Counted from the first letter of the stretch, positions 3,844 through 58,671 are shown. The stretch: 64,000 nucleotides of DNA from Blasia pusilla (GCA_050084515.1 CM114271.1:2294001-2358000), one strand, 5' to 3'. The notes: a model not told the origin generated them from the sequence alone. Numbers and translations are program-made.

Positions 3844-3858
3844 CAAAGAGAGAATGAG
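3843..3858 (+). promoter_or_regulatory. E1 putative self-priming site at the PBS position
   Basis: ACAAAGAGAGAATGAG is the exact reverse complement of 3667-3682 (CTCATTCTCTCTTTGT) inside repeat A. No TGG-starting tRNA PBS is present. Confidence 0.7.
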
Positions 3859-6153: not shown

Positions 6154-6439
6154 ATCACTTGGCCTAGTGATTTGATTGAGGGACATGTCCATGCAGAGGA
6201 TACTCCCGTTCCTGACATTTCTATGGAGAGGAGTGTTATGGTAGCTGCATCATTCCGTGGAGGAGAGGTGTGTGGGGCTCGGACCGAGGAGCTTCAACGA
6301 TTCCCCGATGAGCACGCAGGCACCATGGCATGGAGCGCGGCGTTTGCACAGGCGTGATGGGTCTGAGGAACCCGAGGTAGCAGGGAGTGCTACGATGACA
6401 CCCTTGGATACCACACCCATTGTGTGGTGTACCCTGGAG

Positions 6440-7360: not shown

Positions 7361-7849
7361 GGCGCTTGACATGGATCCTCGGCTTGGGAGTGGTGAGCAA
7401 CGCGTCATATGAGATCGCGACATATCACAACGGTTGCGTTGGTGAGCCCCATGCCTACCGAGACGGTGGAGGCAGTGGCTGGGGGCGAGACCCGAGGAGA
7501 TCTACGCACCAGGGGAGATCGGGAGAGACACCCTTGGACTTCTTGGGATGTTTTGAAGGTACGCAAGGAGATGATAGCCACAGCATCGAGCGTGGTTTCG
7601 GGCACTGCACGTGGAGGAGATCAGAGTTTGCAGTTGGCTGCAGGAGAGCGGCCGAGTGTTGTTGTTCAAGAGGGGTTGCACCATAGCAACCACCGATACC
7701 GCGCCGGAGAGTCCCTCGTAGTCACGATGGAGACTTGGGAGCCGATATGGGCCCTAAGTTGACAGGGGAGGAGAGCGGCGCCGAATACATCGTTCCTCGA
7801 AGTTATAGGAGCGCTGCGTTTAGCATGGAGGATTTGGGTACGTTGAAGG

Positions 7850-9160
7850 GACCGGGGATCCGCATTGAGTTGTCGAGTGATATGCCGATCTTCCGACGAC
7901 CCTACAGGTCTGATGATATGGAGAGGGCTCTGATTCAGAGTAGGAGCCAGGACTTGGTCGGAGCAGGACTAGTGGAGATGTCGCATGGGGAGTATGCATC
8001 TGCCACTATCATGCCCGCCAAGAAGGATGTGCATGGCAACTGGACGGATAGGCGGATGTGTGGGGATTACCGACCTATCAATCGGCAAACGAAGTCCGAT
8101 AGGTATGCCATGCCCACCCCTGAGGAGATCTTTGATGCGATTGGTAACGCAAAGGTCTTGATTCATTGATTTCGAGCCGGATACCATCACCGCCTATCGA
8201 TTGGAGGACAGGCAGAAGACGGCATTTTGGGGCATCGATCCTCACGGGAAGGATTGTTTGTACCAGTGGTGGTTCTTACCATTTGGGTTAAAGAACGCCA
8301 CGGCTGAGTTTCAGAGGGTCATGGATAGGATCTTGGCTGGTCTGGATTTTGCTAGGTGTTATATTGATGACATTGTAGTCTTTAGCGCCACGGTTGAGGA
8401 GCATGAGCAACATCTAGAGGAGGTGTTTTGACGATTGCAATTACATGGGCTGAAGCTACATCCAGGCAAGTGCAAGTTCTTCTATGACCAGATTGAGTAC
8501 TTGGGTCATACGATATACCCAAGGGGGCCTTGGTGTTCAGAGCGAAGGAAGAGGCTATCTCACGCATTCCACGCCCTACAGATGTGAGCCGTGTTCGCGC
8601 ATTCATGGGATTGGCGAACTTCTATCGGCGATACGTCAAGGGATTCAGTTCGATTGCGAAGCCGCTGACCTTGCTGACCAAGGTGGATCACGAGTGGCAC
8701 TGGGGGAATGAGCAGGAGCGAGCATTTCGATTGCTCAGGGGATAGGTTGGCGTCCGCACCCATCTTGAGGAGACCGATCAGGGGGCGTCCTTTCCAGTTG
8801 CACACATATAGGAGCATGTTGGGGCTTGGAGCGGTGCTCACCCACCATGATGATGAGGGTAGAGAGTTCGTGGTGGCTTCCGCTAGCCGCTCGAACAACG
8901 CTGCAGAGGCGAAGTACAACTTGTATGAGGGTGAGTGCTTGGCTGCGGTGTGGGTTGTCGCGCATTTCAGGTGTTACTTATTCGGAAACCCCTTTACCAT
9001 CATCACTGATCATCAACCACTGAAGTGGTTGATGGAGTCCGACAAGCTTACAGGGAAGCTTGCGAGATGGGCTCTGTTGTTGCAGGAGTATGATTTTCAG
9101 GTGGTACATAGACCTGGGACGCTCAACCAGGATGCAGATGGGTTGAGTCGTAACCCATGC
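7850..9160 (+). pseudogene. E1 reverse transcriptase and RNase H (Ty3/Gypsy type, frameshifted)
   Basis: RMCGDYRPIN, KTAFW, LPFGLKNA, CYIDDIVV, FMGLANFYRRYV; RNaseH GLGAVL, YEGECLA, IITDHQPLKWL, LARWALLLQEYDF, NQDADGLSR. Confidence 0.95.
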
Positions 9161-9529
9161 CTGAGTCAGCGAGATGCGACTGGAGCTCGATGGCATGGAG
9201 AGAGTGATGAGTAGTCGGTGCCAGGATAGCACGCGTCAGCCTATTTAGGCATGTTGGCTATGGAGAGCCAGAGTGTGGAGACTTCGATGGCGAGGTCTAG
9301 TGGAGAGTCCTTGGATCCCGAGGCCAGTGAGGACACGACAAGTGGCCGACATATTCATGATGATGGAGTATTCTTAGAGTACCTTCGTACTGGCAGCCTT
9401 GCAAGCACCATGGATACTAGAGAGCGGGATCGGATCCTACAGCGGGCCAGACGGTTCCGTTGGGAGGGGACACATATTTTGAGGGTTTGGGAGGATGGCA
9501 GAGTACGCTTAGTGCCGCATCCTTCACAG

Positions 9530-10600
9530 AGAGCACGACTAGTGCAGCATGCCCACAAGGAGTTGGGTCACTTTGGGGTGAAGCGGACGTATAGCTTGCT
9601 CCACATTCAGTATTGGTGGCGAGGCATGCAGAATGACGTTCAGCAATTTGTTGCCAGGTGCATGGTGTGTGATCGGGTCCGAGCATCGTTCAATGCTCCG
9701 ACTCCACAGTTGCATCCATTACCGATCATGGGCTTAGGGTATAGATGGATTTTGGATTTTGCAGGACCTTTGCCCTTGACGGAGCGTCACAGTCGTTATG
9801 TGTTGGTGATGGTCGAGCACTTCTCAAAGTGGATCGAGTTGGTTGCATTGCGACAAAGCGAGTGAGGGAGTAGCTTATGCCTTCCTTGACAGAGTCTTTG
9901 AGTCATTATGGCGCACCGGCGGAGTGTGTTGAGACCAGGGTACCGAAGTTTCGCGGTGAGTTCCAGGCCTTGTGTGATCGGGGGGCGATTCGACCACCGC
10001 CACGACGCGAGATCATCCTGAGGCGGATGGATTAGCGGAGATAGTTGTGCAGACGGTGAAGAGGGTTTACGCAAGTATGGCTTGCGAGAGAGGTCACCTA
10101 GGAGATTGGGACTTCAGTTGCCATGGTTGGCGATGGGATCTGATTCAGCGAGCACGCATCCTTAGCGTCTTTTTCACCGTATTTGCTACTTTATGGCGAG
10201 CCGATTTACTGCGGCCATTCGTCGAGATCTTTGGTGAGGTTTGAACCTTGATGACCAGATGTATGGGTGCGAGCATGTTCTCGAGGGCTGAGTTATTTCG
10301 AGAGTGATGCCCATGGCGTTCGAGAACTTGGCGATTGCACAAAGATCGGATACGTTGAGATATGCGACTATTCGTGGTGGTGGTTATCGACCAACTATCC
10401 GGAGGTTTCATCAAGGAGATTATGTCTACTTGCGCAGACGGCACCAACGGCGTTGGATGTGATCGCAGGCGCACTATCCGAGAGTGCGTGACATTTTGCC
10501 ATCGGGTGTTCTCTTCTTGTTGGAGGGACGCGATGGTATGGTATGGAAGGACCATGTGCGTAATTGTGCGCCATGTCACCTTCCTAACATTGATGGTACT
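9530..10600 (+). pseudogene. E1 DDE integrase (frameshifted)
   Basis: HHCC zinc finger (HAHKELGHFG...CMVCDR), core WILDFAGPLP and YVLVMVEHFSKW. The downstream core is broken by indels but is collinear with the E2 integrase. Confidence 0.9.
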
Positions 10601-10641
10601 GAAGAGATCCGAGCTTAGCGATAGTTCATGCGGGCTTGCGT

Positions 10642-10782
10642 TGTATGTTGTGTAGTTACGCCGTGTAGTGCGCCACGATGCTAGTCTATGATGGGTGTTC
10701 GAGAGGATGGCATATGGCATGTTTGACGCCACCTCTCACTAGGGTTCCTCAGGGACAATGGATGTGTCCCAGATGTACATAG
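10642..10782 (+). pseudogene. E1 PHD finger at the integrase C-terminus
   Basis: CMLC...MLVYDGCSRGWHMACLTPPLTRVPQGQWMCPRCT-stop; C4HC3 pattern with one Cys mutated to Tyr. Confidence 0.88.
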
Positions 10783-10993
10783 AGAAGGTAGTTCTACATT
10801 CCGACTTGTATCTGTGACATGGATGACAAGGAGGCGACTAACGATGGGGCCACATGAGCATCCGGTTTTCTTGCTCTTAGCGTCGAATCGAAAAAAAAGA
10901 AAGCAAATAATTCTATTATTATTAATAGAATTTTCTGCTTTCTTTTTTTACGATGTATGTCATGGTAGGTAGGGATAGATGGCTATCTGGAGT

Positions 10994-11024
10994 TAGAGGG
11001 ACCTAACCACCAGCTAGGGGGGCG
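10994..11024 (+). promoter_or_regulatory. E1 conserved polypurine-tract-like element immediately before B1
   Basis: TAGAGGGACCTAACCACCAGCTAGGGGGGCG, 29/31 identical to the E2 motif at 28477-28507 (-). Confidence 0.65.
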
Positions 11025-11796
11025 ATTGGAGATATTTTGGTACTTCTTGTCTCGTTGTTTGGATGCCATGAGTTAGCATGGGATCATGCGTGTTTGTGTG
11101 TGTGTTCGGTGACAGCGATGTATGTTGTGTAGCGATGTGTATGCGCACGACAGCTGTCACGTCTTTTAGGATAGATCGGTGAGATCTAATAGAGCACCTT
11201 CATGAGTAGTGGAGGACACGCCCAGTAGGTCGAGGGTGACCTGCTGAGGCCCTTAGAAACCTGAGATAGCAGGTTTCCCCTTCGTTACGGCTCATTTGGA
11301 GCCATATTGAGGAACTTACTATTTTAGGTAAGTACCATTTTGAGTATATGATCGACTTACTATTTTTGGTAAGTGGCCCTTGACCTCCTACATCAGGTGA
11401 AGAGCCAAGGAGGTGACTTGGGAGAATAGGTTACCATGAAGAGAGCTTGGGAGAAGGGAGGGGTATACCTCAAGGAGAGAGAGCTTGAGAGCTCATTCTC
11501 TCTTTGTTGAACCTCTTGGCATGAGGAGGCGGAGCTATGGTACCTTGCCTTGTGAGTGTAACCCAAGCCTCTCATTAGGAGAGTGGGTTTGGTTTGACAT
11601 GAGAGAGAGTGCACACCTTTGAGAGCTATGGTGTGAGATGGAGGAGAGAGAGATTGGATCTTACTTTAATTGGAGATATTTTGGTACTTCTTGTCTCATT
11701 GTTTGGATGCCATGAGTTAGCATGGGATCATGCGTGTTTGTGTGTGTGTTCGGTGACAGCGATGTATGTTGTGTAGCAATGTGTATGCGCACGACA
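11025..11796 (+). repeat. E1 right-end repeat block B1-GC-A2-B2
   Basis: B1 11025-11152 and B2 11669-11796 are both 128 bp with 2 differences seen. Junction CACGACA-GC-TGTCACG at 11146-11161. A2 is 11155-11668. Confidence 0.95.
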
Positions 11797-25473: not shown

Positions 25474-27895
25474 ATATTGTAACATTCTGTTTTCTTCTTC
25501 TTTGTAACAAACTTACGTCTGGGATTTCTTGGTTCGACAGCCTTGAAAGGGGCTTTATAGAGAACTTGTGCAATAGAATTTTGACCAGGAGCGAGCTCTG
25601 TTACTACTGGGATAGCTGATTGAAACAGTGCGCTCTGTGTGCCTCACGAACATTAGCTGTAGTGTTGGTAGATCCATATTGTTCAGTTTCTTGTAGCCCC
25701 AATGCCATATTTCGAAAGTCATGCTTGCTTAATTGTCAACGACCTCAGTGAAGGGCAGGATGGTGGCTATCTCCTGTATTAAATTTGTGTAACACAGCTG
25801 ATGGTTGGCCAAGGTGGCTTGAAAACAACCCATATGGTTTTCAATGCATGAAAAATCTCTTCAGAAGGTCGGCCAAAATTCCAAAAAGGACTTAGACTCG
25901 TCTAGGTCCTAGTTAAAGTTAAAGTTTCATTTCGAAGGCTCATTGAGTGCACTAATGGGGCAGATTGTGATATTAGCAAGAGGGGATATCATCTTGATTT
26001 GTCATAAGTTTAGGATTATCGTCTCCAAAGAATTTGGTTAAAATGCCCCTTCAGGAAAGCTAGTCCTTTGCTTCGTGATGGTAACTTAGTAAAGTTCACC
26101 TCTCTACTCCAAGTCGAGTGTTGTGTAACACTCGTAGTTGATTCCTTCGATATGAAGGAGCCTGAAAAACCATTTTTTAGACTTTTGGAAAACCATAATT
26201 TGCCTTTCCGTGGAGTTTTCCATCACAATAATGGATGTTAATACTCTAAAATGTCAATTGTTTTCTTCATTCAAATTTAATTGTATAGAATGGGAAAACA
26301 AATGAATAATGCTTTCTTTCAGGAAATTTTCCCATCTTCTAGACTACTTTTAGTACTTCATACGTGTAATCTTCAATGGCATTTGCCATCCAGATGTTTG
26401 TAGTAGACTATAGAAGTTTACTTCTTTTCCCTTCATAGAAAAATATTTTGAAGATAGGGAAAAAGTAATATATTCCCTATAACTTGTCTTGTCTTTTCTT
26501 TTCTTCAGCCAAATGGAATGAGGTTGAGGGAAAGTGAATGAATGAAGGTTTCCCCCCCCTTAATAATTCGATGAAACTTTTTCCCACATGGAACTTTTCT
26601 ACATTATTACTTGACTAGTAAATTTTTGGAAAAATGGAGAAAGATATAATATTGGGATTCAGCTGGAATAGGAGGATAAACTAAATCTTGGAATATTTTA
26701 GAAAATCTACATTAGGGCTCTTACAAGTTCACCATTTTTCTCTTCTTTCCATGTAGCCTTTCTGCGCCCCCTACAAAGAAGTTAGATATTTATTTTCGTC
26801 CTAACCCTCTCGGAGGGCTGCACATTGGATTGAGAATAAGGAGACTGGAAGATAAAATTTTCTCCTAATGAATGATTGGATTTGGGATGTTACATATTCC
26901 CATTCAACACGATTTCATTTCATCAATGATCTTGTAACACATGTCACCAAACAAAAACACTATATTGGTAGTAGTTTTGCCAAATTTGAATGCCTCCAAA
27001 GGGCCCATTTAATAACCATTTTTCAAATCCAAGTTTTTCATATGCTTTTATGGGTACTTAAAGTCCAGCACCTAAAACGATGCTTGCATTCCTAACGGTC
27101 CCAACTGTCCAATGGACCTCGTGCGAATCCCAAACCGAGATCCAACTAAATGAGTCGCAGGTTGGAATCCAATACGGACCTCCAAAATCCGCTCTATTGG
27201 ACTTGATTCGGATTTCGAATCCCAACGCTAAAATCCCGATGAATTTTGTACCCTTGGATCGTCCCGCGGCGCCCCAAAGTGAAGTTCGAGTCCCAAGCAC
27301 TCTTGGAGACCTTCCCTCTTATTAATATGTCTGGGGTTCTTCGTCCTCCCACCATCTTTGGGCCACTCTTTTTGGTCCTCAACCTAAATCTCCATACAGT
27401 CATTTCTAAGAACTTTCTCAACCTATGCTTATGTGTTTGCTAACATCTTAATGCGTTGGAACTAGATTCACATAAGCTTTCCAACGCCATCTTATTTGTC
27501 CCAAACACATCTTGGGACCAAAAGTTATGATCCAAAATACAGTCAAAACCCCAAACGCTAGTCACGTTCCAAATTTGGTTCTCACCTCTTTAGCAACCAC
27601 TCTTCCTAGACTCGACTCCTCTCAAGTCTTGGTTTACGTTTGGTTCAGGTTTCCTAGTTGCGACCATAAATGCATAAAACGCTAAACCTTGCTCGCTTCT
27701 CATCTCTTGTGTCTCTTGCGTCTCTTCTAAGAGATCACTCCAACGCGCAAATCATCCTAGCGTGAGCCTGCTAGAATTCTGATGTTCTGCTTGGTGCTCG
27801 TTTGGTTATGAGGGTCGCGACACCCAAGTTCCGCATCTTATCTCGATGGAAGTAAAGACACTAGAGGAAATCTTGGTTTTTATGCCTCTAATAAA

Positions 27896-28476
27896 TGTCG
27901 TGCGAATCCACATCGTCATACAACATACATTGCTGACATACCATACTCACATACATACATAACATAGACGAGAGCATCCACAAACACAAGTGTACCACAA
28001 CTGAAATCCGTGAAAGACCCACTGCCATAAAACACGTATAGAATCACATACAATCGAGCCAAACCCACTCCACGATGGGAGAATCTAGGTCGAAGCTTGG
28101 AAACACCATAGCCAAGAGCTCTACTCACTACCAAGGCTAACTCCCAAGCAATGAGGCTCAACTCAAAGAACTCGATTTGTTCTTTGAGTGCACTCCACCT
28201 ATATCCTCCAACCTAAGAGCGGGCCCTCTTTGGAAAAGTCACCTCAACCGAGTAACCTCCAACCCTATGTATGAAATCGCATCTCTACCTAGACACTGCG
28301 GCCCTACATAAGGTATGGCCTCTACTAGCACACTATACTCTACGACATAATCCGTATGGTCATGACAGCTGTCGTGCGAATCCACATCGTCATATAACAT
28401 ACATCGCTGACATACCATACTCACATACATACATAACATAGACGAGAGCATCCACAAACACAAGTGTACCACAACT
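27896..28476 (-). repeat. E2 terminal repeat block B1-GC-A2-B2
   Basis: 27896-28002 repeats at 28370-28476 (107 bp). 28003-28367 repeats at 37297-37660. Junction GACA-GC-TGTC at 28364-28373. Confidence 0.95.
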
Positions 28477-28648
28477 CGCCCCCCTAACTGGCGGTTAGGT
28501 CCCTCTAGCTTCCAGGTATCCCTATACATCTACTACATGCTATACACCTTCTTGGGTGCACGAATCAAAAGGCCGGGTGCTAGGTTGCCCCATCGTTAGT
28601 CGCACATCTATAATCCATATCATGCAAAGATCAAGTCATCTACCCCTC

Positions 28649-28789
28649 CTAAGTACATCGAGGACAAACCCACCTTCCAGTAGGAACAACATCCATACAT
28701 GGAGTCAAACACATCATGTGCCAACCCCTAGAACACCGATCACACACCAACATACGGGTTGCGTTACCAGCAGACCCACACAACATGCA
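28649..28789 (-). pseudogene. E2 PHD finger
   Basis: CMLCGSAGNATRMLVCDRCSRGWHMMCLTPCMDVVPTGRWVCPRCT-stop; intact C4HC3. Confidence 0.92.
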
Positions 28790-28829
28790 CCTCAAGCTAG
28801 CACGTATCATGGCTAAGCTTGGGTCAACA

Positions 28830-29900
28830 GTACCATCCACATTTGGAAGATGGCGCACAATTACGCACATGGTCCTTCCAAACAACTCCATCACGACCCT
28901 CCAACATGAGAACTCCAGAAGCTAACACCTCGCGCACTCGTAAAATAGTGCGCCCTGCTGTCACATCCAACGTTTTCGGTGCAATCTGCTGCAAAAAGAC
29001 ATATTCCCCCACATGGAACCTACGAATCGATGGTCGATAACCTCCACCCCGAATAGTTGCATACCACAACGTATCCCTGTGTTGAGCAATGGCAAGATTC
29101 TCAAAGGCTGTTGGCATAACTCTCCGAAAGAGCTCTGCCCGCTGAGAACACACTCTCATCCACATCTCTGGGTCATCAAGGTTCACCACCTCACTAGACC
29201 CCCGACGAATTGCTGTTGGCAAGTATGGATCTCGACCGTATAACAGAAAATAAGATGAGAAGGAAGCCAAGGATGCTTGGCGACTGAACCTATACCCCAT
29301 GGCTAACCATGGCAACTGAATATCCCAGTCTCCAAGATGCCCCTTTTGTAGGCCATACTTACGCAATGCCCTCTTCACCGTCTGAACCACACGCTCAGCC
29401 AAACCATCCGCCTCTGGATGATCTCAAGACGTGGTCCGATGATCAATCAACGCCTTGTCACACAAGACCTGAAACTCACCCTAAAACTATGTACCCTGGT
29501 CGGTCAGTACTTCAACCGATGCACCAAAATGACTAGCACTCTATCAAGAAACGCATACGCCGTTCCCTCACTTGCCTTGTCCGGTAATGCCACCAACTCA
29601 ATCCACTTGGAGAAGTGCTCCACCATCACCAACACATATCGATGATATCGTACAGTCAACGGTAACGGTCCCGCAAAGTCCACACTCCAACGGTAATCCA
29701 ACCCCATAATAGGCAAGGGGTGTAATTGTGGTGTAGGGGCATTGAATGATGCCCTCACCCGGTCACAAACCATACAACATGACACCAACTGCTGCACCTG
29801 AGTATGCATGCAACGCCACCAATGCTGACCAAGGAGTAAGCTATATGTACGCTTTACCCCAAAATGTCTCAACTCCTCATGGGCATGTCGCACAATGCGC
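28830..29900 (-). pseudogene. E2 DDE integrase
   Basis: HAHEELRHFG...CMVCDR, WSVDFAGPLP, YVLVMVEHFSKWIELVAL, TDQG, AERVVQTVKRAL, YFLLYGRDP. Confidence 0.92.
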
Positions 29901-30289
29901 TCTCTCTGAGCCAAATGCGGCACTACTCGTACTCTACCATCCTCCCACACACGGAGAATATGTGTTCCCTCCAATCGATACCTCTTAGCACGTTGAAGAA
30001 CACGGTCTCGCTCCTTGGCACTCACTATGCCTGGCACCCTACTGGTCCGTAGGAACTCCAACACCAACGCATCATCATGAATATCACGCTGATCCGTACC
30101 ACAATCTCCAACCTTAGGATCCGAAGGCTAGCCATCTACCCTCTGACTAGAGTAAGATATCATGTGGTCCTCCATACTAGAGTCCATCCCTAACCAACAT
30201 AAAAAGGCGAATGCATGCCAACCTGGCACCATCTCCTCATCATCCTCGCCATGCCATCTAGCCCAAGTTGTATCCTCTTGGCTAGTACA

Positions 30290-31520
30290 TGGGTTCCTAC
30301 TCAACCCATCAGCATCAAGGTTGGCAACTCCAGGTCTATGTACCACCTAGAAGTCATACTCCTGTAAGATAAGCGGCTGGTGATCAGTAACAAGGGTAAA
30401 CTGTGTGCCAAACAAGTAACACCTAAAGTGTGCCACAGCCCACACTACTGCCAAGCACTCTCCCTCATATGAACTATAGCGACTCCGCTGCATTATTCGA
30501 ACGACTTGCATAGGCCACCACAAACTCCATGTGCTCATCATCATGTTGTGTCAACACCGCTCCAAGTCCCAACCTACTCCAATCAGTGTGTAACTGAAAT
30601 GGGCGCCCTTTGATAGGTCTCCTCAAGATAGGCGCCGCCACCGACTGGGCCTTAAGCTCTACAAAAGCTCTCTCCTGATCATCTCCCCAATGCCACTCTT
30701 GATCTGATTTCAGCAATTGGTTCAAAGGCTTTGCTATAGCACTAAATCCCTTCACATACCTCCGATAGTAGTTCGCCAATCCCATGAATGCCCGAACTTT
30801 ACTCACATCTACCGGACGCGAAATAAGTGCAATAGCCTTCACCTTTGCTTGCTGAACTCCCAAACCACCTGGATAGATCACATGACCCAAGTACTCAACA
30901 TCCTCATGGAAGAACTTACACTTTCTAGGATGCAAACGTAGACCATGAGCTTTCAACCGCTCAAACACCATGTGCAAATGTATCTGATGCTCCTCCACCG
31001 TGTTACTGAACACCAAGATATCATCAATGTAACACCGAACAAAATCCAACCCTGCTAGGATCCTGTCCATCACTCTCTGAAACTCGGCATGTGCATTCTT
31101 CAATCCAAAGGGTAAGAATTTCCACTGGTACAAACAATCCTTGCCATGAGAGTTGACACCCCAAAATGCTATCTTGGCCTTGTCACTCTCCCGAATCGGC
31201 AATTGATGGTATCCTGCCCGAAGATCCAAAGTACTGAAAATATTTGCCTGTCCCACTACATCAAAGATCTCTTCAGGTGTAGGCATGGCATACCTATCGA
31301 CCTTGGTTTGCCAATTGATAGGACGATAATCTCCACACATCCGCCTATCCGTGTAGTTGCCATGCATATCCTTTTTAGCAGCATGCATGGGGTGGCGATG
31401 CATACTTTCCATGCGACAACTCCACTAATCCAGCCTCCAAAAGGTCCAACGTCCTACTCTGAATCAGGTCCCTCTCCATATCACTATATCGGTAGGGACG
31501 ACGGAAGATTGGCGTATCAC
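30290..31520 (-). pseudogene. E2 reverse transcriptase and RNase H
   Basis: ORF 30474-31412: RMCGDYRPIN, FSTLDLRAGYHQL, LPFGLKNA, CYIDDILV, LHTDWSRLGLGAVL; then YEGECLAVVWAV, TDHQPL, DADGLSR. Confidence 0.95.
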
Positions 31521-31974
31521 TAGCCAAATCAATCCGTATACCGGGTCCAACCAGAGAACCCAACTCCTTCATGCTAAAGGCAAAACAACTCCTATAAGCA
31601 CGTAGGAACTGTGTCAAGCGTCGTTTCTCACCTCCCGTAAGCTTGGGCCTAATTAATGGCTCCCAAGTCTCCTCCACTGGCACTTTGCCATTGGCTGCTA
31701 CGCAACCCCCTCACAAGATGGTACACCCTTAGCTACACCATCAGCTGAGCAAATAACTCCTCCACCAGCATGAGCAACCAACTCCACATGCCCAGCCATT
31801 ACATCCCATTTACTCCAAGGATGCAAAATACTACTCTCCTCGCCCCCAACCGATGCCTCTATCGTCCCGGTAGCCATCGAGCTTATTACAAGGGGTGGAA
31901 GACCCACAGACATAGTCCGAAGTCGACGCTGCTCGGCCATACCAAGACTCAAAATCCAAGTCAAACAATTCAGG

Positions 31975-32890
31975 TCCATGGCCTGACCCAACACATGACG
32001 TCGTGAAGCCTCGAAATGGAAGCAACATTTGTCACACCGAGAGCAAATCCCATCGACGCTCGCTCATCAGCGTTAGGCTCACCAACTGTCGCACATGAGA
32101 ATCCCATACAAGCCCGTGACCACCTTCCCTGTATGCATGTGACGAGGGAAAACTCACAAATGTGGGTAGTGCCATCCTAGGCTGGCCCACACGATTCACC
32201 ACTGCCATGGGTGACCGATCAATAACCCTCACTACCTGAGAAAGTCGCCCAGTATCCAAGATACTATCCACTGTAAGGCAAGGATCCCGCTGCACTGCAT
32301 CATATGATCGACGTAGAACCTCCCTAGGCAACAAGTTTGTCCACCACAAGAGTGGACGATGTGCACGCGAGCCAACTCGGGCTGCATCCAACAACACCGT
32401 TGGTCCAATCCAAGACCGCACCTCATGAACACTCGCCATCATCCGGGTCCGAGTGTCATCCAACAATGGAACATTCTCCAAAATGTAAGCTAGAGCACGT
32501 GCCTGATGAACCTGAAGATGTCGTAACACCCGTAACATCTCCCAAAACAATCGAGACCGAGGGTCGTGTAATCCCTCACCACGACCAACACGTGTATGAC
32601 CCTGACATGGCCATCCAGCAATCACCAAATCCACAGGACCAACCCTCTCAAGGTCCTGCGCCCCCAAGAATGCAATGTGTGATGGCAAAGCACGATGGTA
32701 CCCACGAATAGCTGATGGCGGCAACAACTCAAGATATCTCAGCATCAACTGACCAATATGTCGGGATGAGACTCTGTGGGCCGTCTCATCTTGCTCCACA
32801 TACACGTATCTCCAAGACAGAATACCGGCTTGCAACATCGACCAAACCAGGTGCTAATCCCACCAAAGAGATCTAACACACAGATGCCCT
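31975..32890 (-). pseudogene. E2 DNMT3-like C5 cytosine DNA methyltransferase domain
   Basis: VLDLFGGIST (I), YVYVEQD (II), DLVIAGWPCQG (IV, catalytic PC), YILENV (VI), LLDAARVGSRAHRPLLWWTNLLP (VIII), VLGQAMD (X). Most of it lies in the 268-aa ORF 32032-32838. Confidence 0.92.
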
Positions 32891-33179
32891 CGGCGGATCG
32901 CCATACAATGGGTGTAGTATCCAAAGGGGATAACCTAATGGACAGAAGTAGGAGTCCGTGGGGCCTCCTCTTCCTCGTGAGGTATAATGACCTCACACCA
33001 AGCCTCCTACACTAGGCGTCGCCTCTGCCGTAGTGCACCGCTTGAACTCCAAAGTGGCACATCCAACGATGAGGATGCCACTGCTGCAAAAATAGGGACC
33101 TCCTCTACCTCCTCATGCACAGGAGAATCCATAGCAAAAACATTACCCTCCAAAAATCTCCTGGCCAAGTGACTACTCC

Positions 33180-33737
33180 ACTAAAACCAACCACAGATGC
33201 TAACACTGTTGGGGAAGACCCTCCTGGTCGAGCCCCATAAATAAATCTCACAGGAACTTGGCTCATACGTCCATCCCCGGACTGCCAACCAGGTCTATAA
33301 GACGCTGTCTCACCCAAGTAATCCATCATCGAAAACCCATCGGGTACAAATCTCGCTCCTCCAACTAGTACATCATACGACTCGGCTGATGTGACTACCG
33401 CAGATACTCCCAACCGGGAGCTATCAATCGCATGATCTGGTCTCAATTGTACAGAAAACTTCTCCCGTTTCATGAATTGAGACCTATCATTGGCTCCTCC
33501 AAGTGATGTTTGAATCTGGAATGGGCAACGCTCGAGCTCTGACCTCCGAATACCCAAACCACTACATGCCGCCTTTCCCAACATCAAAGGTTGGGCAGCA
33601 GAGTCTAACAAGACTCTATCTGGTCTATACACCTGTCCTGTAGGACTCACCAATCGGAATATCCCACTCCGATTGTCCAACATACATACACCAGGTGTAA
33701 GCCTCTCACGATCAATGGTGGCCGGGTGGTAATGCAT
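33180..33737 (-). pseudogene. E2 aspartic protease-like domain
   Basis: RVLLDSAAQPLML (DSG-like active site) and YDVLVGG (C-terminal ILG-like motif), located between gag and the MTase. Confidence 0.75.
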
Positions 33738-34249
33738 CCATCTTCGCCGCCGCCGCTAAGTAGCATTGGTACTCAATGCTACACCTGACATAGAGGGTCG
33801 CTCCACCGCAACACCCTCATCCACCTCAGCACGTGTAGCATTAACACCCCCACGTTCACACAACTTGGTTGCTAGCTGAAATACATGAGCTAAGTCAACT
33901 CCTAAAGCCATCAGCTCCGTGGCCGAAAACAATGGGGATCCCAACACTGAAGTTGCCATCCGCAATACTGCACTAGATGTTGCATCCGTGTCTACTACAC
34001 GCGATGTAGATGCCCCAGTCCCCACTATCCGCTCAATAGGCTGCGTAGAAACCATGGATGGTGTCCTAAGCACCTCAGACAACAAGAATGACTGGGGAAG
34101 CCTATCCTGCCTCCTGCCCCCCCCCCCCCTTCTGTGGGTCCAACTCCACAGTAGCACCATGTGGCTCTGATGCTCGAGTGGCTCCTCTCAGAATCGCTGG
34201 TGATGCCTCAACTCAGGTATCTTTGCACTCGCCATATAAGAGAGATCAT

Positions 34250-35764
34250 CTCCTCCATAAGAGGTGGAAGCCCCTGCTCCCGAACCGATCTATCTTTGGA
34301 TACCCGACCATAGTAGCCAACTTCTGCTCCAACGGCTCAATCTCGGCGACCATAATCGACTCGTCGTAGTGGTAGGGGTGGCCACCGTAGGCTCTCCAAC
34401 CACTGGTCCACCTCTACCACCCCTACCACCTCTACCACCTCGGCCTCTCGGAGCTACTCCACCACGGCCGCGGCGTGATCTCAACTCGGATGAAGATCAA
34501 AGCAACGCTCTCGAGGATGGTCTGGTCTCCCGCAATGATCACACACTGAGTTGGGGCCGATCGAGGCCCATCCTCCAAAGTCCGTCTCCCATCCTCTTGG
34601 GGACAAAACTTCCTTACATGATCACCTCCACATGTCCAACATGATCCGCCCAGCAGCGGCAAAGCAAATGAAGGCAATGGTCTCTCGCAAGTGTCCCTCT
34701 AGGACTGGACCGAGGTCGAAGTGTACCCCCACGACTCCCACTACTACTACTACCACCACCACTACTACGAGACGTGAGGGACCGCCGCACACGAAGTAGT
34801 AGTTGTATCCCCATGAATGCCGATGTCACCACTCTCTCCTTCACCATGTTAAGCTCAATCTTCTCGTAAAGAGCAAACACATGGTCAATGTGGGTGAATC
34901 ATCACTCATAAGAGTAGCATCACGCACCTGCAGGCGCAACTCTCATCCAACATCCCATACCAAAACGGATGCTCGAGCCTGAGTCACACCTTGGGTAATG
35001 AAATCAAGCGCCGTGATACGAGTGTATGCCTCACGAAGACTCTCACCAGTCTTTCGCTCAAATTCTTGAAGACTTCTCAACTTCTCTGTCTTCACTCCTG
35101 ATAGTTCTTCTTCAACCTCTTGAAGAACTGCAGAATCGGGCTAACGATGGTGGGGCACTAGTACCTCCACTAGTACCCCCATTGGTACCTCCATGGGTAC
35201 CTCCATGGGTACCCCCACCCCACTCGGCTCGCACTCGTACCACTCAACGTCGGGATTTGGATGGCATAGTAGGAGCACTACTACCAATACCACCATGGGT
35301 GATAGACACATAGCCGGAGACCAATATTGTCTCCACGCCTCAATCTCGACAACATGGTCCTTCCTAAACTCATGGTAATCATCCATGGGTGGTCCCTCAA
35401 GTCTTTGAAACAACCCCTTCCAGGCCAAGAAGGGTGTAAACAACGTGGCGTTCCGCAACATCTGCATATCACACCACGTATCAAACTCCTACATGAAGTC
35501 CTCCAACTCAATGGTGCCCACTGCACCCGAGTATCGTCGTGGGCCCTTCATGGTCCCATATATCCCGTCCATGTCCCAAATCAATGGAGCTCCAACACTC
35601 GATAACAACGTAGAAGACTCGGTGTTTGGAGCACCCTCGTCCTCCTCTTCATCAACCGTCGGAAGTGGAAAAGGTAGCCGATACCTAAATCTGCTCCGTG
35701 TGAAACCACCACTGTCCGCACCACGGTCCCCAACCAGACCACCCGACAGCTCTGTGATGACCAA
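34250..35764 (-). pseudogene. E2 gag-like region with zinc knuckle
   Basis: Fragments homologous to E1 gag, a CWTCGGDHVRKFC knuckle at about 34600-34645 and an RGG-rich tract at about 34400-34480. Confidence 0.7.
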
Positions 35765-37284
35765 CGCCGATGCCGCACCACCACCAAATTATCACCACTA
35801 AGTAACCAAGTGACATCGATGTCGCTATACTATTCTAGCTCTACTAGCTATGGGTGTAGGCAACCTAACCTGTCATCACTACAAGAAGCATCCCACGGTC
35901 TATTGGTCATCACTCTAGCCTCACTACCGGTAGCACACAAGAGTAACACTGCTCTGGAAATCAGCTTCAACCCTAACAATGGGCGCGCAAGCAAGAAGCA
36001 ACGATGGAGGGGATCCAAACACAGGAAGTCCAACGACAACCCTCCAATCGCAAATGGAAATCAAGGTAACACAATCCACCAAACGTGGCGCCCCTTGAAT
36101 CCACAGAACCCACCACACAATTCTAACGCAATAGCTACTCCGCCGCGGGTCGATGACGTGCTAGTCCAACTTGCAGCACCTGAAAATATCACCTGCATGG
36201 AGAGGCTACACCATACTATGCGCTAGAGGTCCATCAACCAAAAACCTGAGATGCATAAAGCGCCTAACACCTCTCCGACCAACACCAAATGAGCTACAAC
36301 AGTGTGTACACTGGCATAGTTAAGAACTCAGCAATTAAGCGTCTTCCAAGCAGAATAGCCCAAAGATGGGTGACCAGTTATGCAACACTCAAATCACAAA
36401 TCCTGCAAAAAATGCCTCACGCCCAAGCAAGAAAGCTTGCTTGCTTGCTCATTGCTCCTTACTCCGCCTCTCACGCCCACTCACCCCGAGCTACCACGAG
36501 TTGCCTCAAAGCCTCAAAACGCCGAGAAATGCTCAAGACATGCCCCGTTCGCCACGCTTCGCCATGCTTCACCATGCTTCGCTATGGAGAGAGGCCCAAC
36601 CAGGGCGCCCCCAATGGGATAGGCGTCTCCAAAATGAACGAGTCACCACCCAACCAGCCCCTCCGATCCGTTGTCCACCATAGCCAGACCTTGAGCTAGT
36701 CTGCAAAATTTTGATCAGCAATTACTCCACAAATCCTCAACCAAAATTGAATCTGTTTCAACCAGAATTCAATTGACCACCATAACTATCTCTCCACAAA
36801 AAATCAGCTACAACCAAACTGTGTACTCTGAGCTAAAAATCAGACAAACTTGTTGTCCATATACCTCCAGAATCGCAAATCCAACAGCGCTTCCGCCCAG
36901 TTTCATGCACGCAGAAATCCGCAACGGTCCACACACTCGAGAAGATAGCTTCACATGAGATCAAAATACAAGTAGCAACAGGAACCTCTCACCCAATCTG
37001 GATGAAGTTCAACAGAGCTTCCGCACTCCAAGCTCTCCACATCAGAAAATCGTCGAACACGAACCAGAATCTTCAATCCTTGATAACTTCCAACTCCCTT
37101 GACGAAATCCGGGATCTAAAGCGTGTTGGAAAGATCTCAGCAAGGCGCTTCTTTCCCAACCAACCACGCACCAGATTCACACCTCCAACATAGGCCACAA
37201 GCCACGAACATCCATGGATGAGTACACAATCAGCCCTAACAAGATCCTACTGATCCACAATCAAAGCTACCATCGATCTACGTC

Positions 37285-37296
37285 AGTTCTTTGAGT
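37285..37296 (-). promoter_or_regulatory. E2 putative self-priming site at the PBS position
   Basis: Element-sense ACTCAAAGAACT directly after A1 is complementary to AGTTCTTTGAGT in repeat A (28161-28172 in A2, 12/12; 37456-37465 in A1, 10 bp). Confidence 0.65.
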
Positions 37297-37660
37297 GAAA
37301 TCCGTGAAAGACCTACTGTCATAAAACACGTATAGAATCACATACAATCGAGCCAAACCCACTCCACGATGGGAGAATCTAGGTGAAGCTTATGGAAACA
37401 CCATAGCCAAGAGCTCTACTCACTACCAAGGCTAACTCCCAACGCAACAGGCTCAACTCAAAGAATTGACTGTTCTTTGAGTGCACTCCACCTTATATCC
37501 TCCAACCTAAGAGCGGGCCCTCCTGGAAAAGTCACCCTCACTGAGTAACCCCCAACCCTATGTATGAAATCGCATCTCTACCTAGACACTGCGGCCCTAC
37601 ATAAGGTATGGCCTCTACTAGCACACTATACTCTACGACATAATCCGTATGGTCATGACA
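37297..37660 (-). repeat. E2 repeat A1 (364 bp)
   Basis: Direct repeat of 28003-28367 with small indels. Element-sense TATAA at about 37492-37496. Confidence 0.93.
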
Positions 37661-40303
37661 TAAATGACTAGCTTAAGTCATTGTTCATGGTAAATAACTG
37701 AGAATAACTCATGACCATTAGAGTCCTATAAATCAAGTCATTTATAGAAAATGACTAAGGTTACCCAATCGGTAAACGACTCTAGTCATTGATATATGTA
37801 TAATGTATCATGTGTGAAAGCCATGTCACGATGCCACCTTCACATATGACATGGCATGAAGATGATATTATAGTCACCAATGAATACCACCTGTATGAAA
37901 TGACTCAATCATAACTACACTTCCCATCTTATTACATGACATGGCATCTAAGTAGGATTTGAATATCAAATCACATGCGACCATTTGGCACCACGCGGGA
38001 AAGGATAGTGTCATGAAACAATCCAATGACATGTGTCAATAGATCGTCTCTAACGCTTGTAAAACATGGTAGAGATGACTCTATCATAAAGAATGATTGC
38101 ATGAGTTTTATTCAATAACTCATCAAATCATTAGATATGACTATATGAGTCATTTACTGGCTATGTAAGTCATTAAAAATTATTATAAGTAACTTGGTGT
38201 GACGAGGTGAGTCACTTTGAATGACTAGAGACATTGATTGTATTAGTCATGTATACGACTATATTAGTCATTTCTTAGCACTGCGTTCGACATTGTTGTG
38301 ATTGTATTAGTTAAATCAATGATTAGATCAGTCATATTATTAATGAATCGATACTGTTTTGACTTTACTAGTCATTTGCAGATGTTATTGGACTACATTA
38401 GTCATTGTAATCATTGAATGAGCCAAACATAAGGGAGTTGATGGATGTTCTTGTCTCAATATGATGAGATCCATGCAAGAGTTAAAAACATCAAGGTAAT
38501 TCTGACAGCATAAACAAGTCCCAATAGTGAAGATGAACTTCAATATAATCAGATCATTTTGTTCTTGATTACTAGAATAGTGAGGAATCATTGTAGATAA
38601 GGGTCACAATCTCTTCAATAGGGGAAATAGCAAAAAAGAATGAATGAAAAAAATGGACATAAGGTAAAAGAATGGCATGATATCATCATTGTGCCATCTC
38701 TAAATTCTCTGAAAGTTACTTAGAGCTCCTAATGAACAAACCTTTTTAGATTTAACTATGGCCAAATGATAAAAGTCCCTATTGCATCTCCAAGTGTGAG
38801 TTGAGTAGGTTCATTCATTGTGTTCGGATCCCATAGTTGGTGATCATGTTGCATTGTATTCTTTAGGTCCACCTTGACCAAACCGAGACCAATATCCTTC
38901 TCATGGACGGAAGACTACGGAGCCTATGCAAAAAGTAATCTTTGTTATAAGAAGTTAAAAAGAGATGAACTAGATGCCATCCAACTTGTTTTTACTCTTG
39001 GATACCAATTTAATAGATTAGGAGAGAGAAGTGAGTGAGTGAGGAGAGGGTTTAGGGTTTAGAGCAATATACTAGTGCAGCAATATGAGTAAAAGGGATG
39101 GCAATACGGCTACTTGAAGCCATGCCATGGCAATTGGTGTAACTAAGGTTTAATCAAGAGGATGAAGGTTTGGATCAAGAGGATTAACCTAAGGAGGTAT
39201 CTCATTCCCGACCTTTATGAAAAGGCGCAATTTCCCTAAAAATGCTTTTGTCCTCACTCTTACTACATAAGCCATTAAGTTTGAAATAAAGAAGTAAAGT
39301 TTCTTGGAAATCATATTTGTTTGGGAAAGTTTGAGTAATCATTGAAATTACAAGAAAACAAAAACCAATTGTCCACAATATAAGAACTCAATAGCAAAAA
39401 TTCTTTGGATAGAGAAGAGGAATAAACTTGGGAAAGAAAAGAGTCGAACCTTTTTTTAAGCACCATAGATCTCAACAACTATGAGGAAAACTCTAATTCC
39501 TTCACGAATTACCATCACTACTAAGAATCGAGCATTAATAGTAGATACTCTTTCACAAAGCTTTTGTCGGGCACGAAAGGAAGTCATTACACATAAACGC
39601 ATTATTTCTTAAAAGTATGTACATAACAAATAATTTTTGAAAATGAAGAAGATGTTATGTCATCATTATAACAACATAAAAAAACTATTAGAATCAAGTG
39701 AATTCAATTTATTAGATATACAAACCTAAGAAAAAAGAGGGGAAATAAAACAACATCATCCTAAGAAAGGAAAAACAAGAAACGAATTTTTTTTTAAATA
39801 TTTAAACAAACAAACTCAAAAAATTAGTCAATAATTTGAAACAAGTGGGACGAAGACTAGTGAGTGGTGGCGAGTGACGCTAAGCAATTAGGCTGGACAA
39901 ATCAACGCTAATACACGTTGTAATTACGATTGAGAGCAAGCAAAGTGGTGATTCGGGAGCCTTCACGTACTCCACTCTTTGAAGTGATTCAAAGAGTCGA
40001 GTGCGAGAAGGCGCTTATCTTTGAACCGGGAACACATGCTGATCCACAGAAGAATGAATAGCTAACAGGTTTGATGTCGAAGAATTGGCAGGTTAGAGTA
40101 CGTGATTGTGTGAGTCAGAGTTTCATTTCGAGGTTAGCATATGTGTTTGTATGAATAATAGTTCATTTTGAATCTTGCGGCGATTTCTTGACGTCTTCCG
40201 CTTCCTTCTTCGTGCGCAGAGAGCAAAGAATTGCGTGTGAAGGAATGCGTGCATCGACTGTGCGTTGGGCGTGGATGATTTCTGGCGCATCAGCACACAA
40301 GGG

Positions 40304-46700: not shown

Positions 46701-49700
46701 TGGTTATTCATTGTGGTCCAATCTCACTCACACAAACAAGAAGAGTTTTATTTTTATTCTACATGAAATTTTGACGTAATATTACGAATTAACTAACTCA
46801 ATTTCAAATATATAAACTCTAAAATATAAAATCGTAAGATGAATATGCACGAGAGAATAAAATATCAATACAAAATCGAATTAGTATGAAGGCACTAATT
46901 CGACTTTTTTAATATTCACCGACAAACCTTAAATAAAGACCGGTTACCGGTTCTTGTCGTACGCGTGACCGTGACCAGCCGGATTGGAACTTTCCATCGC
47001 CTCCTCATTTGGTGGCGGCCTCGCACATAGTCACAGCTTCCGGCGGCAACTGGTGTTCCGTCCGAAGTTCCCGTCGCCTCCACATTGGCGGTGACCTCCC
47101 CAGTGTCCCGCCAAGCTCAGCGACGGCACGCACGCACATCCGACGCAGCCAGGGTCCAATGGAAGGTGATGGATGGATCCCATGGGAGAACTACCCGCGA
47201 GGAGCGGGAGGTGTCCGGACCGTGGAGGTCCACGTGTTTGTCGCCGGCCCTCATCATGAGATCCTGGTACACGGATAGCATGCCACGTGTCGTTACTAGT
47301 CCAATCAATAAGTATATAGCGCTCCCCTTATTGCGTATTATGCCGTCAAGACCTCCGCCACGTGCCCCGTAAGAAACAGAGTCTAATCAACGGATTACTT
47401 CCGTTATTCCGTCCGTCTATGATCGACTGAGTTGGATAACTTGGTTCCATCGCGCGTCCGGTAGAACACGTTGTAGTTGGTATTTTCTAGAAATATATAT
47501 TTATATTCTGAAATATTCTGAGACATCTATATAATACTATTCTAAAACATATTAGGTAATCTAGTGTTAATCTAATAAGATAGGAATAAGATAACACTCT
47601 TTGCCATTGAACTATTCATAAAAAAATTTATAAATATTATGAAATATAGTTATATTATTATTTGAGGAGCATTTTTCAAATGGAGACAATTAAATATTCA
47701 CCACATATCATTTTAAGGTAGGGAATGTATGATGTGTGGCATAACAAGAACACGGGTCCTAACTTGTACAATAATATTCTAAAACATATTAGGTATTAGT
47801 GTATTAATCTAGTAAGATAAGAATAAGATAACACTCTTGTAATGTCGTTGGATTATTCGAAAATAAAGTTGTAAAAAATTTGCATGGTCTTTCCTATCCC
47901 CCTCCAATGTGTACTCTCCCCTCATCGAAACTCCCTCCTCTTCTTTGCTTAACTTAACTACTTCCCTTAAAATTACACATGTTAACATCGCACAAATTCA
48001 TGTGTAAACTCTAAACCCTAAACTCCTCTTCTCTTGATAATTTAGAATTTAGAACATGATGGATTGTTGAAACATGTTTCCAGTTTTGTCAGGTATTGCA
48101 TAGAATGCGATATCATTTTATAGCCCATATATTATATTGATGATTTGTTGTTTGTGCCATTGTAGTGGATTATGGATGGAAATGAAAAGCCCTAAAGTGT
48201 GGAAAGATAATGCTAATCCATTGGACACACTTTGAATTTCTAAAGTTTAATATCCAAAAAGTTGATGTGAAAATAACCAAGATAGACTTCCACTTAATAA
48301 TTAATGAAATTCTAACTTCTCTTTGAAAAAAATAATTTTCCCTTTTTGATTGGGGAAAAAAGGATTTATCATTCTTTTTCTCAACCACCATCTCTTGATT
48401 AAAAAAAGAAGATAACTTTGTTTAATCCTGAAATATTTCCCAAAATAATATTTAAAATTTCCTCCCAACCTAGCCTGAATTTTTTAGTAAAGAAATAAAA
48501 ATCACATTCAAATCTTTAAGAATAATTCTTATCCCACCTTTCTTAAGTACTTTGTCTTCTTTTCCCTAAATAACAGTGAATTTTCCACTCCAAACTAAAA
48601 TTGGAAATTGGAAATTTTACTTTTTTTTTGCTCAAACCTTAAAATTTACATTTTTTAAATGGGAAATTACAATGAAGATGAGGAGACCATGAAATTTAAT
48701 TAATTTAAATAATTTTTTTAAATTAAAAAAATCTAATGACTAAAATATCTTTCCCATTGGACTTTTAACTAAATATAAGGTAAATTAAAAAAGTGTGTCA
48801 AGAGACTTGACACACTCAAAAGATCTTTCATTCATAGCTTTTCACAGTGAGCTAGTGCAAATAATAGAACGATTCAAAGCTAATAGAATCAATCAAAATG
48901 AATGATTATTACATCTAAGAGGAGTTTTTAAAGCATCTCTTAGTACCTATTTCATGATTTTAAGAGGATGGAAGTTACTACAACATTGGTTTTTAATGCT
49001 TAGATGACAAATGTCTAAAAAAATTTTTAAAAAAGTGTCTTTCACTTCATACTATAGATTATTTGACGAGATTTTATTTACATGAATATGCATGTTTCTA
49101 GAAGTGTGATTTTTTTTGGAATATCTCCTTTCTTTCTATTTTGAAATTTTATGTGGTTAAATTAAACTTATGTGATGGAAGCCTTTTCTGATTAAAGCGT
49201 CTCTTTTTCTAATTTTGGGACATTTTTGTAGAAATGTTAAGATTGTTGTAGATGATTTGGATATTTTTATCTACATTTTGCAGAGTGGGAAGACGAGACC
49301 TTGTTGGGAGTGCCTTTAGTGCCCAAAAAATCCAACTTTAATAGTTTTTTCTAGAAATCCCTTCCTCTCGCTTTGTTGCCTTGGAGAGAGATCTATTTTC
49401 TATGTGGACTTTTATCCAAAAAAGGATAATCCGAAGACCTAATCTCATATCTTCGACTTGGCCCATTTTTTATTTTTTCTTTGGTGGTATATTTATTTTT
49501 ACTCGTACTTATCAAAATACCAAGGACTTTGGAAGCATTTCCCAAGGAATTTCTTATTTCCCTTCATCATATTCAGTAATTTTCACATTAAAATAAAGTG
49601 TCTCGAATTTTCTTGTTGTAAAGCTTTGCACATAAAGTAAATATGTTTGGCTCTCGATATAATAGGAGTTTAGTCACTCTATAATGGTGTCAATAAGTTG

Positions 49701-58310: not shown

Positions 58311-58671
58311 AAAGCATTAGCCATTTTCAAACCCTCTCGTTTATGGCTCCCTGTCAACGCGTCCGCAGCGTCGCAGAAACGTGCGGCGCTGGAGACGCTT
58401 CCGGCTCTCCCGAGTCATTGAGTCCATTGCAGTGCAGTGATTGAGTGCATGAACGGACGCCAGAGCAGAGGATTGGGAACTAAAAGCTCCTTCCGGTGCA
58501 GACGCGCAGAGACTGCAGATTTCTTCGTGCGATTGGTTTTGTTCGCTTCTCTGGTGCTCGCGGCGGAGCACGCTCTTCGTGGACCGGTAGAGTAGACGAG
58601 AGTTGCGAGCGGAGAAGCGGAAGAAGAAGAGAAGAGAAGAGGGAGAGAGAGTGAGAGGAAAATCGGAAGCT

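Follow-up and report, generated by a model that had tools for sequence, protein, structure and literature searches.

Retrotransposons of the DIRS order, such as PAT and Ngaro, carry split direct repeats in the arrangement A1-open reading frames-B1-A2-B2 with an internal end-to-end joint, and insert without a target-site duplication. This internal joint of the two ends is reportedly the hallmark of the order, a description attributed to Cappello in 1985, and template-directed completion on it has been proposed for DIRS, PAT and Ngaro elements. We analyzed here a 64,000-nucleotide stretch of DNA from Blasia pusilla (GCA_050084515.1, CM114271.1:2294001-2358000), hereafter the window, whose minus strand contains an element termed E2 (27896-37660) that combines such a repeat plan with the domains of a Ty3/gypsy-type long terminal repeat (LTR) retrotransposon. 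The closest described system is KnitGypsy-Dnmt3 from Klebsormidium nitens, reported in 2018: according to the legend of Fig. 4c in PMC5890265, it joins Gypsy domains, with a DNMT3-type domain inside the polyprotein, to DIRS-like A-coding-B-A-B repeats, stated to be the same structure as in a DIRS retrotransposon. The combination of gypsy domains with DIRS-like repeats is already published and is not new. For this element, the main text of that paper yielded no mention of a duplication, a primer site, a polypurine tract, a palindrome or a mechanism, and its supplements may hold more; our literature searches for a published mechanism turned up the 2018 paper alone. What is new here is a polypurine tract (PPT) placed at B1, a self-primer pairing in four families, the reading of an internal palindrome as the integrase site, and RNA that barely reaches B2. 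From this anatomy, we propose that an E2-type insertion is probably an end-joined complementary DNA (cDNA) opened at the palindrome of its 5' LTR, the LTR of reverse transcription being B-GC-A.

Direct reading and a repeat search of positions 26500-39000 gave the minus-strand order of E2: A1 (37660-37297, 364 nt), the coding region, B1 (28476-28370, 107 nt), a GC dinucleotide, A2 (28367-28003, 365 nt) and B2 (28002-27896, 107 nt), the last being joined straight to the end of A2. The A pair appears as four co-linear blocks with a spacing of 9293-9295 nt and the B pair with a spacing of 474 nt. A1 and A2 show 351 matches, 8 mismatches and 11 gap columns, i.e. 97.8% identity over the aligned bases, and B1 and B2 are identical at 105 of 107 positions. 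On the minus strand, the flank ...TCATTTA leads into A1, which runs from TGTCATGACC to GGATTTC(A), and A2 also opens with TGTCATGACC. The coding region closes with ...TTAGGGGGGCG, directly before a B1 that extends from AGTTGTGG to CGCACGACA; B2 likewise ends with CGCACGACA and is followed by the flank TTTATTAG. The first bases of E2 are TGTCATG and the last ones CGCACGACA, which gives ends of the TGTC...GACA type, and an exact 4-bp target-site duplication, TTTA on the minus strand and TAAA on the plus strand, borders the element on its 5' side (37661-37664) and its 3' side (27892-27895). TG...CA termini with a short target-site duplication are thus present in E2, as expected of a DDE integrase. 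Two identical LTRs, one per end, are not: the 5' end is A alone and the 3' end is B-GC-A-B. At the B1/A2 junction, GACA-GC-TGTC (GACAGCTGTC, 28364-28373) forms a perfect 10-bp palindrome whose halves are identical to the outermost ends of the inserted element. The same palindrome is read in E1, a related element of the window (plus strand, 3330-11796), and in three loci from metagenome contigs (L014, L029 and L010). The split-repeat order, GC spacer, TGTC/GACA ends and TAAA duplication announced by an earlier, sequence-only reading of this DNA are all there, and its repeat lengths (364/107 nt in E2 versus 514/128 nt in E1) are correct. Beyond the 5' duplication, the AT-rich flank at 37665-38335 is dense in short motifs of the AGTCAT/ATGACT type, with a 37-nt imperfect repeat at 38235 and 38299, and may be the remains of another repeat into which E2 inserted.

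The minus-strand frames of E2 encode the domains of a gypsy-type polyprotein in the order protease-methyltransferase-reverse transcriptase-RNase H-integrase-PHD, as found by Pfam and tblastn, with a weakly supported protease. The protease-like region and the reverse transcriptase enclose a DNMT3-like C5 cytosine methyltransferase domain (32107-32919, PF00145, E 7e-9), in which a frame change separates motif I from motif IV; the closest solved structures to this fragment are DNMT3B and DNMT3A (E 5e-8). The domain is followed by the reverse transcriptase with the start of RNase H (30480-31415; RVT_1, E 7e-30; RT_RNaseH_2, E 7.5e-17), an integrase spread over two frames and comprising an H2C2 zinc-binding domain and a DDE core (28860-30127; Integrase_H2C2, E 6e-12; rve, E 1e-4; also tblastn), and a C-terminal PHD finger (28655-28852, PF00628, E 8e-10). 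Upstream, translation reveals a gag fragment with a CX2CX4HX4C zinc knuckle (CWTCGGDHVRKFC) in the frame 34698-34432. The protease-like region (33255-34040) carries D-S-A in place of the D-S/T-G triplet; in tblastn, residues 6-242 of a Marchantia homologue match it at 52% identity. It also aligns weakly (E 0.007) to the protease part of the homologue P0049, and the homologue P0002 matches Asp_protease_2 only at E 0.062, under the cut-off. In the E2 fragments, Pfam calls no protease and no zinc-knuckle family, even with the threshold relaxed to E 5; these two assignments are based on a motif, one homologue and one weak alignment. Alignment with unbroken relatives shows that pol is read successively in frames -2, -2, -3, -1, -3 and -1, i.e. 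with at least four frame changes. With repeats about 2% diverged and a pol broken in this way, E2 belongs to the Ty3/gypsy-type LTR retrotransposons as a dead copy.

With the reverse transcriptase fragment of E2 as query, 785 longer proteins score at or below E 1e-20, and those of Marchantia polymorpha (82%, DNMT combined with reverse transcriptase) and Calypogeia fissa (80%) are the best matches. Further relatives come from K. nitens (53% and 45%, possibly records of KnitGypsy-Dnmt3), Closterium and Chara. Many of these proteins combine PF00145 and PF00628 with reverse transcriptase and integrase. Such matches point to a liverwort-like streptophyte as the probable source of the window. Judged by its domains, E2 can be placed in a streptophyte clade of the KnitGypsy-Dnmt3 kind, with a DNMT3-like methyltransferase in pol and a PHD finger after the integrase. 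Like KnitGypsy-Dnmt3, it has a DNMT3-type C5 methyltransferase domain inside pol and an A-coding-B-A-B repeat plan; E1 and E2 differ from it in belonging to another host lineage, with best matches of 80-82% in liverworts against 53% in K. nitens.

This domain content bears on the possibility of a tyrosine-recombinase element, whether a genuine member of the DIRS, PAT or Ngaro groups or a chimera that depends on a recombinase encoded elsewhere. E2 does share with the DIRS order its split direct repeats and an internal end-to-end joint, B1-GC-A2, and only the repeats speak for such an element. It departs from that order by its DDE integrase, its TG...CA ends, the two-nucleotide spacer between CA and TG and its 4-bp duplication. 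No tyrosine recombinase domain was found in the 10 E2 fragments scanned with Pfam, nor does PF00589 figure in the precomputed Pfam annotations of the 120 listed relatives. An rve integrase is present. Moreover, TG...CA ends and 4-bp duplications, the latter at 10 of the 12 complete insertions considered below, are not made by site-specific recombination. We therefore regard this explanation as hardly credible.

Searches with the unbroken relatives detected two copies only in the window, E1 and E2. E1 follows the same plan on the plus strand, with A1 at 3330-3843, B1 at 11025-11152, GC at 11153-11154, A2 at 11155-11668, B2 at 11669-11796 and the duplication GCTT on both sides, and it is without about 1.9 kb covering the knuckle and protease region. 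Its DNA is about 74-75% identical to that of E2 from the methyltransferase to the PHD finger, and the B repeats and polypurine region are alignable, whereas the A repeats are not. Since all these parts align, the shared layout is inherited rather than convergent. E2 had been presented as a family independent of E1, and this does not hold; that the A repeats cannot be aligned is true, and they alone fail. As to the coding region, the domain order given for E2 from protease to PHD finger was right, and its retention of a zinc knuckle and a protease stands for the knuckle motif and the protease-like stretch. The suggestion that E2 would be the best template for the ancestral polyprotein has to be abandoned, as its pol contains at least four frame changes and unbroken relatives already exist in public protein sets.

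One could also wonder whether the arrangement of E2 results from the mis-assembly of a high-copy repeat, or from a solo A-B unit nested in, or in tandem with, an A-int-B unit (int, internal region). The family is indeed very abundant: 226,212 contig pieces of the DNA run X1, which represents 54% of the sampled words, were placed on the window, so that reads cannot fully settle the question, and no single contig of the examined runs spans E2. A single 137-nt contig without differences bridges the A1/flank junction (37635-37771), and its DNA run may be the source of the assembly; the B2/flank junction is spanned by none of the contig pieces listed. However, the same order, two-nucleotide spacer and outer 4-bp duplication are found in E1 and in 13 distinct insertions from other, metagenomic assemblies, and two separate insertions would leave a 4-bp duplication rather than a fixed 2-nt palindromic centre. 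Mis-assembly is unlikely given this recurrence, and we give an artefact of either kind next to no weight. Altogether, E2 is real and correctly delimited.

The metagenome comparison was made by scanning contigs with an alignment of ten unbroken relatives, which returned 80 loci. Among the loci on these unrelated contigs, 52 measure at least 7 kb, and in a strict self-BLAST screen 10 of them displayed the complete A1...B1-A2-B2 plan. Probing with A and B of one family, called here the main family, gave a POL-B-A-B arrangement in 19 loci, which correspond to 13 distinct insertions told apart by their flanks. All 13 have a G-run at B1, a B ending in CA(C/T)GA(C/T)A, exactly two nucleotides, and an A starting with T(G/A)TCATG. 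The same features recur in further families (L014 and L029, which are close to E2, L028, L041 and L061) and partly in L010, a locus left unclassified in which the G-run, a 57-nt B-like stretch and GACA-GC-TGTC are present. Every B1/A2 junction that was read consists of CA, two nucleotides and TG. Perfect 4-bp duplications flank 10 of 12 complete insertions (E1, E2, L021, L028, L034, L048, L056, L066, L067 and L076), those of L078 and L062 being imperfect, with three and two matching positions out of four. The spacer is GC in E1, E2, L010, L014 and L029, and 12 of the 13 main-family spacers are purine-pyrimidine pairs that differ from GC by transitions only, for which reason we read GC as probably ancestral and its variants as decay. 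We had also considered a spacer free to vary and specific to each lineage, and dropped this idea: on a star-like tree of the 13 insertions, it changes 7 times for a shuffle mean of 7.1.

Two observations can be added on these copies. The contigs L014 and L029, the close relatives of E2, have the same B, the same polypurine tract and the same GACA-GC-TGTCATGACC junction, and their B2 begins 1-6 nt later than their own B1. Differences among copies are mostly transitions (GACA to GATA, TGTC to TATC, spacer GC to AC, GT or AT), and this excess would fit the deamination of methylated cytosines; the family itself encodes a cytosine methyltransferase.

The position of the polypurine tract is a first key to the replication of these elements. 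In E2, the tract AGTTAGGGGGGCG (28477-28489) adjoins the first base of B1; it is conserved with E1, and a G-run occupies the same place in all the other families. It lies within a block conserved between E1 and E2, TAGAGGGACCTAACCnCCAGnTAGGGGGGCGA, and in both elements AGGGGGGCG stops exactly at the first base of B1, and not at that of A2. The G-run abuts B1 in 13 of 13 distinct insertions of the main family as well as in L014, L029, L028, L041 and L061. This position is difficult to reconcile with a conventional LTR made of A plus B, in which either the 5' LTR would have lost its B or an RNA running through A2-B2 would pass on the A|B joint. Taken together, A2-B2 does have TG...CA ends (TGTC...GACA), with the duplication flanking it on one side. 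On the other hand, there is no purine tract before A2 and no primer site after B, RNA hardly reaches B2 (see below), and B is missing after A1 in E1, in E2 and in 18 of the 18 loci whose 5' side is visible; an identical loss repeated in four families over deep time is implausible. An LTR of this kind is thus very improbable.

The second key is the sequence that follows A1. In E2, a primer-binding site (PBS), CTCAAAGAACT (37285-37295), stands directly after A1 and is complementary to AGTTCTTTGAG in A. The pairing test gives 11 nt against A2 (1 of 2000 shuffles), where the putative self-primer site lies at 28162-28172, 171 nt from the end of A; the corresponding site of A1 (37457-37465), the presumed transcription start, is degraded, with 9 nt complementary to the PBS (14 of 2000 shuffles). 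Pairings recur in the other families. In E1, a complementarity of 15 nt links CAAAGAGAGAATGAG after A1 to CTCATTCTCTCTTTG, located 177 nt before the end of A (0 of 2000 shuffles); L034 and L067 have 15 of 15 paired positions between AATTCTAGAAAAACT and AGTTTTTCTAGAATT, and L028 has 13 of 13 between AATCACCAAAAGT and ACTTTTGGTGATT. The values are 12-14 against A1 and 14 against A2 in L048, L056, L076 and L078, 10 in L062 and 11 in L066. Since the sequences of the four families differ, both partners have changed while the pairing was maintained. In all four, the self-primer site is preceded at a distance of 28-33 nt by a TATA-like box: TATAAG in E2 (37492-37497, about 31 nt upstream), TATAAAAGG in the main family (32 nt), ATATAAT in L028 (about 33 nt), and an equivalent in E1. 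In minimum-energy folds, four of five modelled leader RNAs pair their first 14-15 nt with the PBS, as against 0-1 of 200 controls with a shuffled PBS. The complementarity beginning at offset 0 after A1 is strong in the four families, the start of the transcript being predicted from sequence.

A parallel can be drawn with the Tf1/sushi elements and the plant element Tcn1, which (PMC6317226, PMC5006619) have no tRNA-type site after the 5' repeat and possess an inferred transcript start complementary to the sequence that follows. These elements differ from E2 in having ordinary identical LTRs and a chromodomain, without split repeats, DNMT or PHD finger.

We then turn to the transcripts. Reads from two stranded raw-read RNA runs carrying the same species label as X1 were placed at 90% likeness, and depth was taken in 339-bp bins. 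Almost all RNA reads in both runs have their first mate on the plus strand, which, assuming the usual library type, makes them sense transcripts. Sense depth in the two runs is 117 and 174 in the B1 bin, 37 and 43 in the A2 bin, and 51 and 68 over the 3' part of A1 with the primer site, and it drops to 0.95 and 1.27 in the bin 27700-28038, which holds B2 and flank. This profile agrees with transcripts that include PPT-B1-GC and a 5' portion of A2 and do not extend across A2|B2. The A|B joint would then have to be re-made as DNA in each cycle.

These depths weigh on the alternative of a DIRS-style, template-directed completion, in which the RNA would lack both element ends and B1-GC-A2 would serve as a copy of their joint, allowing the cDNA to be completed, circularised and opened by the DDE integrase. 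The repeat plan is that of DIRS-order elements, as stated by de Mendoza et al. (PMC5890265), and this pathway, too, ends in a circle cut at the palindrome. It nevertheless requires RNA extending into B2, where the depth is about 1 versus 117-174 on B1. Furthermore, it leaves without a role the G-run at the start of B1 and the primer site at the end of A1, which are conserved in four families, and it meets the same difficulty of two palindromes as discussed below for our own scheme. We consider it unlikely, albeit less so than the other alternatives.

Other features of the RNA reads deserve mention. In both runs, some reads pass directly from 29116 to 30124, with 9 other letters inserted at the join (16 and 29 reads), and some from 29034 to 35486 (6 and 7 reads). 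Because GT..AG is missing from the sense-strand borders, these joins are not read as splicing, and they look like expressed, internally deleted family members. Another set of reads (3 and 6) joins 37627 to 28048, i.e. position 320 of A to position 34, in an A-A joint without the end of A, B and the palindrome.

Coming back to the end-joined cDNA opened at the 5' palindrome, which we consider the probable origin of E2-type insertions, its successive steps could be as follows. Transcription would start inside A, about 30 nt below the TATA-like box, and the first 11-15 nt of the RNA would anneal to the bases that follow A1 and so serve as primer for the minus strand, in a Tf1-like manner. Plus-strand DNA would start at the G-rich tract directly before B1. 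Since A ends where the self-primed minus strand would start and B begins where the plus strand would, the LTR of the cDNA would be B-GC-A, rather than A or A plus B. In such an LTR, B1 can be read as the 5' part of U3, and A1 as the 3' part of U3 followed by R and U5. The integrase sites would then be the two halves of the palindrome inside the LTR, and not the cDNA ends. The cDNA termini, i.e. the end of A and the start of B, would be joined, either before cleavage, in a 2-LTR circle, or after integration or strand transfer, and opening at the palindrome of the 5' LTR would yield A-PBS-int-PPT-B-GC-A|B, the very order of E2. At A2|B2, the U5 end would accordingly be fused with the beginning of U3. 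The most speculative step is the use of the 5' palindrome alone; the integrase might conceivably commit to the palindrome that first becomes double-stranded after plus-strand transfer. Models of direct reverse transcription into A-int-B-GC-A-B, among them an RNA reading through into B2, priming at the palindrome and rolling-circle synthesis on a 1-LTR circle, were dropped on paper, because the needed primers are not shown by the sequence or because the product would be A-int-B only.

The state of the joints is consistent with this scheme. Read by eye, A2|B2 shows small insertions or deletions in 5 of the 13 distinct insertions (-2 three times, -1 and +1), for 0 of 13 at PPT|B1 and 0 of 8 at A1|PBS, so that A2|B2 looks newly made. 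There is also a precedent for the cleavage. Retroviral integrases have been reported (PMC1180852, PMC1905944) to cleave the palindromic LTR-LTR junction of 2-LTR circles, the CA...TG palindrome of the two LTR ends being cut by the cognate integrase into processed ends. In retroviruses, such a junction forms only when the ends of the cDNA are joined, and this route is accessory at best, whereas in our scheme the palindrome would be present in every LTR and inherited through the RNA. The joined cDNA ends would also form a separate site (A|B), apart from the palindrome, unlike in the retroviral circle.

Several points weigh against the proposed scheme. A free 2-LTR circle has two identical palindromes, and a random choice between them predicts that half of the insertions have the order A-B-GC-A-int-B; none of the 18 loci whose 5' side can be seen shows this order, and a simple circle model thus needs an added asymmetry, which is guessed. 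The primer site in the own A1 of E2 is degraded to 9 nt, and the E2 leader does not fold onto its PBS. Most RNA reads are only 90-99% alike and come from other copies, so that depth reflects the family and not the E2 locus; it is known in 339-bp bins only, and neither a transcription start or poly(A) site nor a cDNA end or a circle was directly observed. In addition, 21 RNA molecules of the run X22 share an end at 37500, position 161 of A, where the neighbouring depth is 100. This pile lies above the presumed start and just above the TATA-like box of A1; it may result from alignment clipping at an indel-rich stretch or represent real 3' ends, which would not fit the model. As for the metagenome loci, no B2 was found after A2 in L010, and eight loci (L021, L032, L046, L052, L054, L064, L071 and L073) end in int-B without A2-B2, L021 being an A-int-B with a perfect 4-bp duplication, CCAA. 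Such single-B loci may be B1 x B2 deletions, products of annealing-type repair, or a second primary product. Finally, the indels at A2|B2 sit in an AT-rich, slippage-prone stretch, which offers an alternative explanation for them, and on the star-like tree of the 13 insertions the joint labels change 5 times, a value equalled by all 1000 shuffles, so that this tree is no test of joint inheritance.

Elsewhere in the window, an array resembling a satellite occupies positions 56980-58335; its nested periods measure about 39, 68 and 107 nt, in up to 15 copies with 64-93% identity to the reference, and two AT-rich 72-nt direct repeats, 88% identical and 237 nt apart, lie at 47530-47838.

The family to which E2 belongs is abundant and transcribed in the lineage of the source organism, and retrotransposons carrying DNMT3 extend from a charophyte alga to liverwort-like hosts and to relatives in Closterium and Chara. 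While the 2018 description consists of one sentence in a figure legend without mechanism, the anatomy reported here gives a replication scheme that can be tested and that may explain the general origin of split direct repeats. If this scheme is right, these elements provide a natural case of a DDE integrase acting on an internal palindrome, in which joined cDNA is productive and not a dead end. The idea that joined cDNA could be productive has long been debated for retroviruses. A bolder hypothesis, which we hold only tentatively and judge somewhat less likely than its opposite, would be that the whole DNMT3/PHD gypsy clade uses a permuted LTR, B-GC-A, that its integrase recognises GACAGCTGTC within this LTR instead of the cDNA ends, and that each insertion requires the joining of cDNA ends, in a 2-LTR circle or some equivalent form. 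If the hypothesis were true, end-joined cDNA would be an obligatory integration intermediate for a retroelement with a DDE integrase, and a mechanistic bridge would be offered to DIRS, PAT and Ngaro elements with their internal circle junction.

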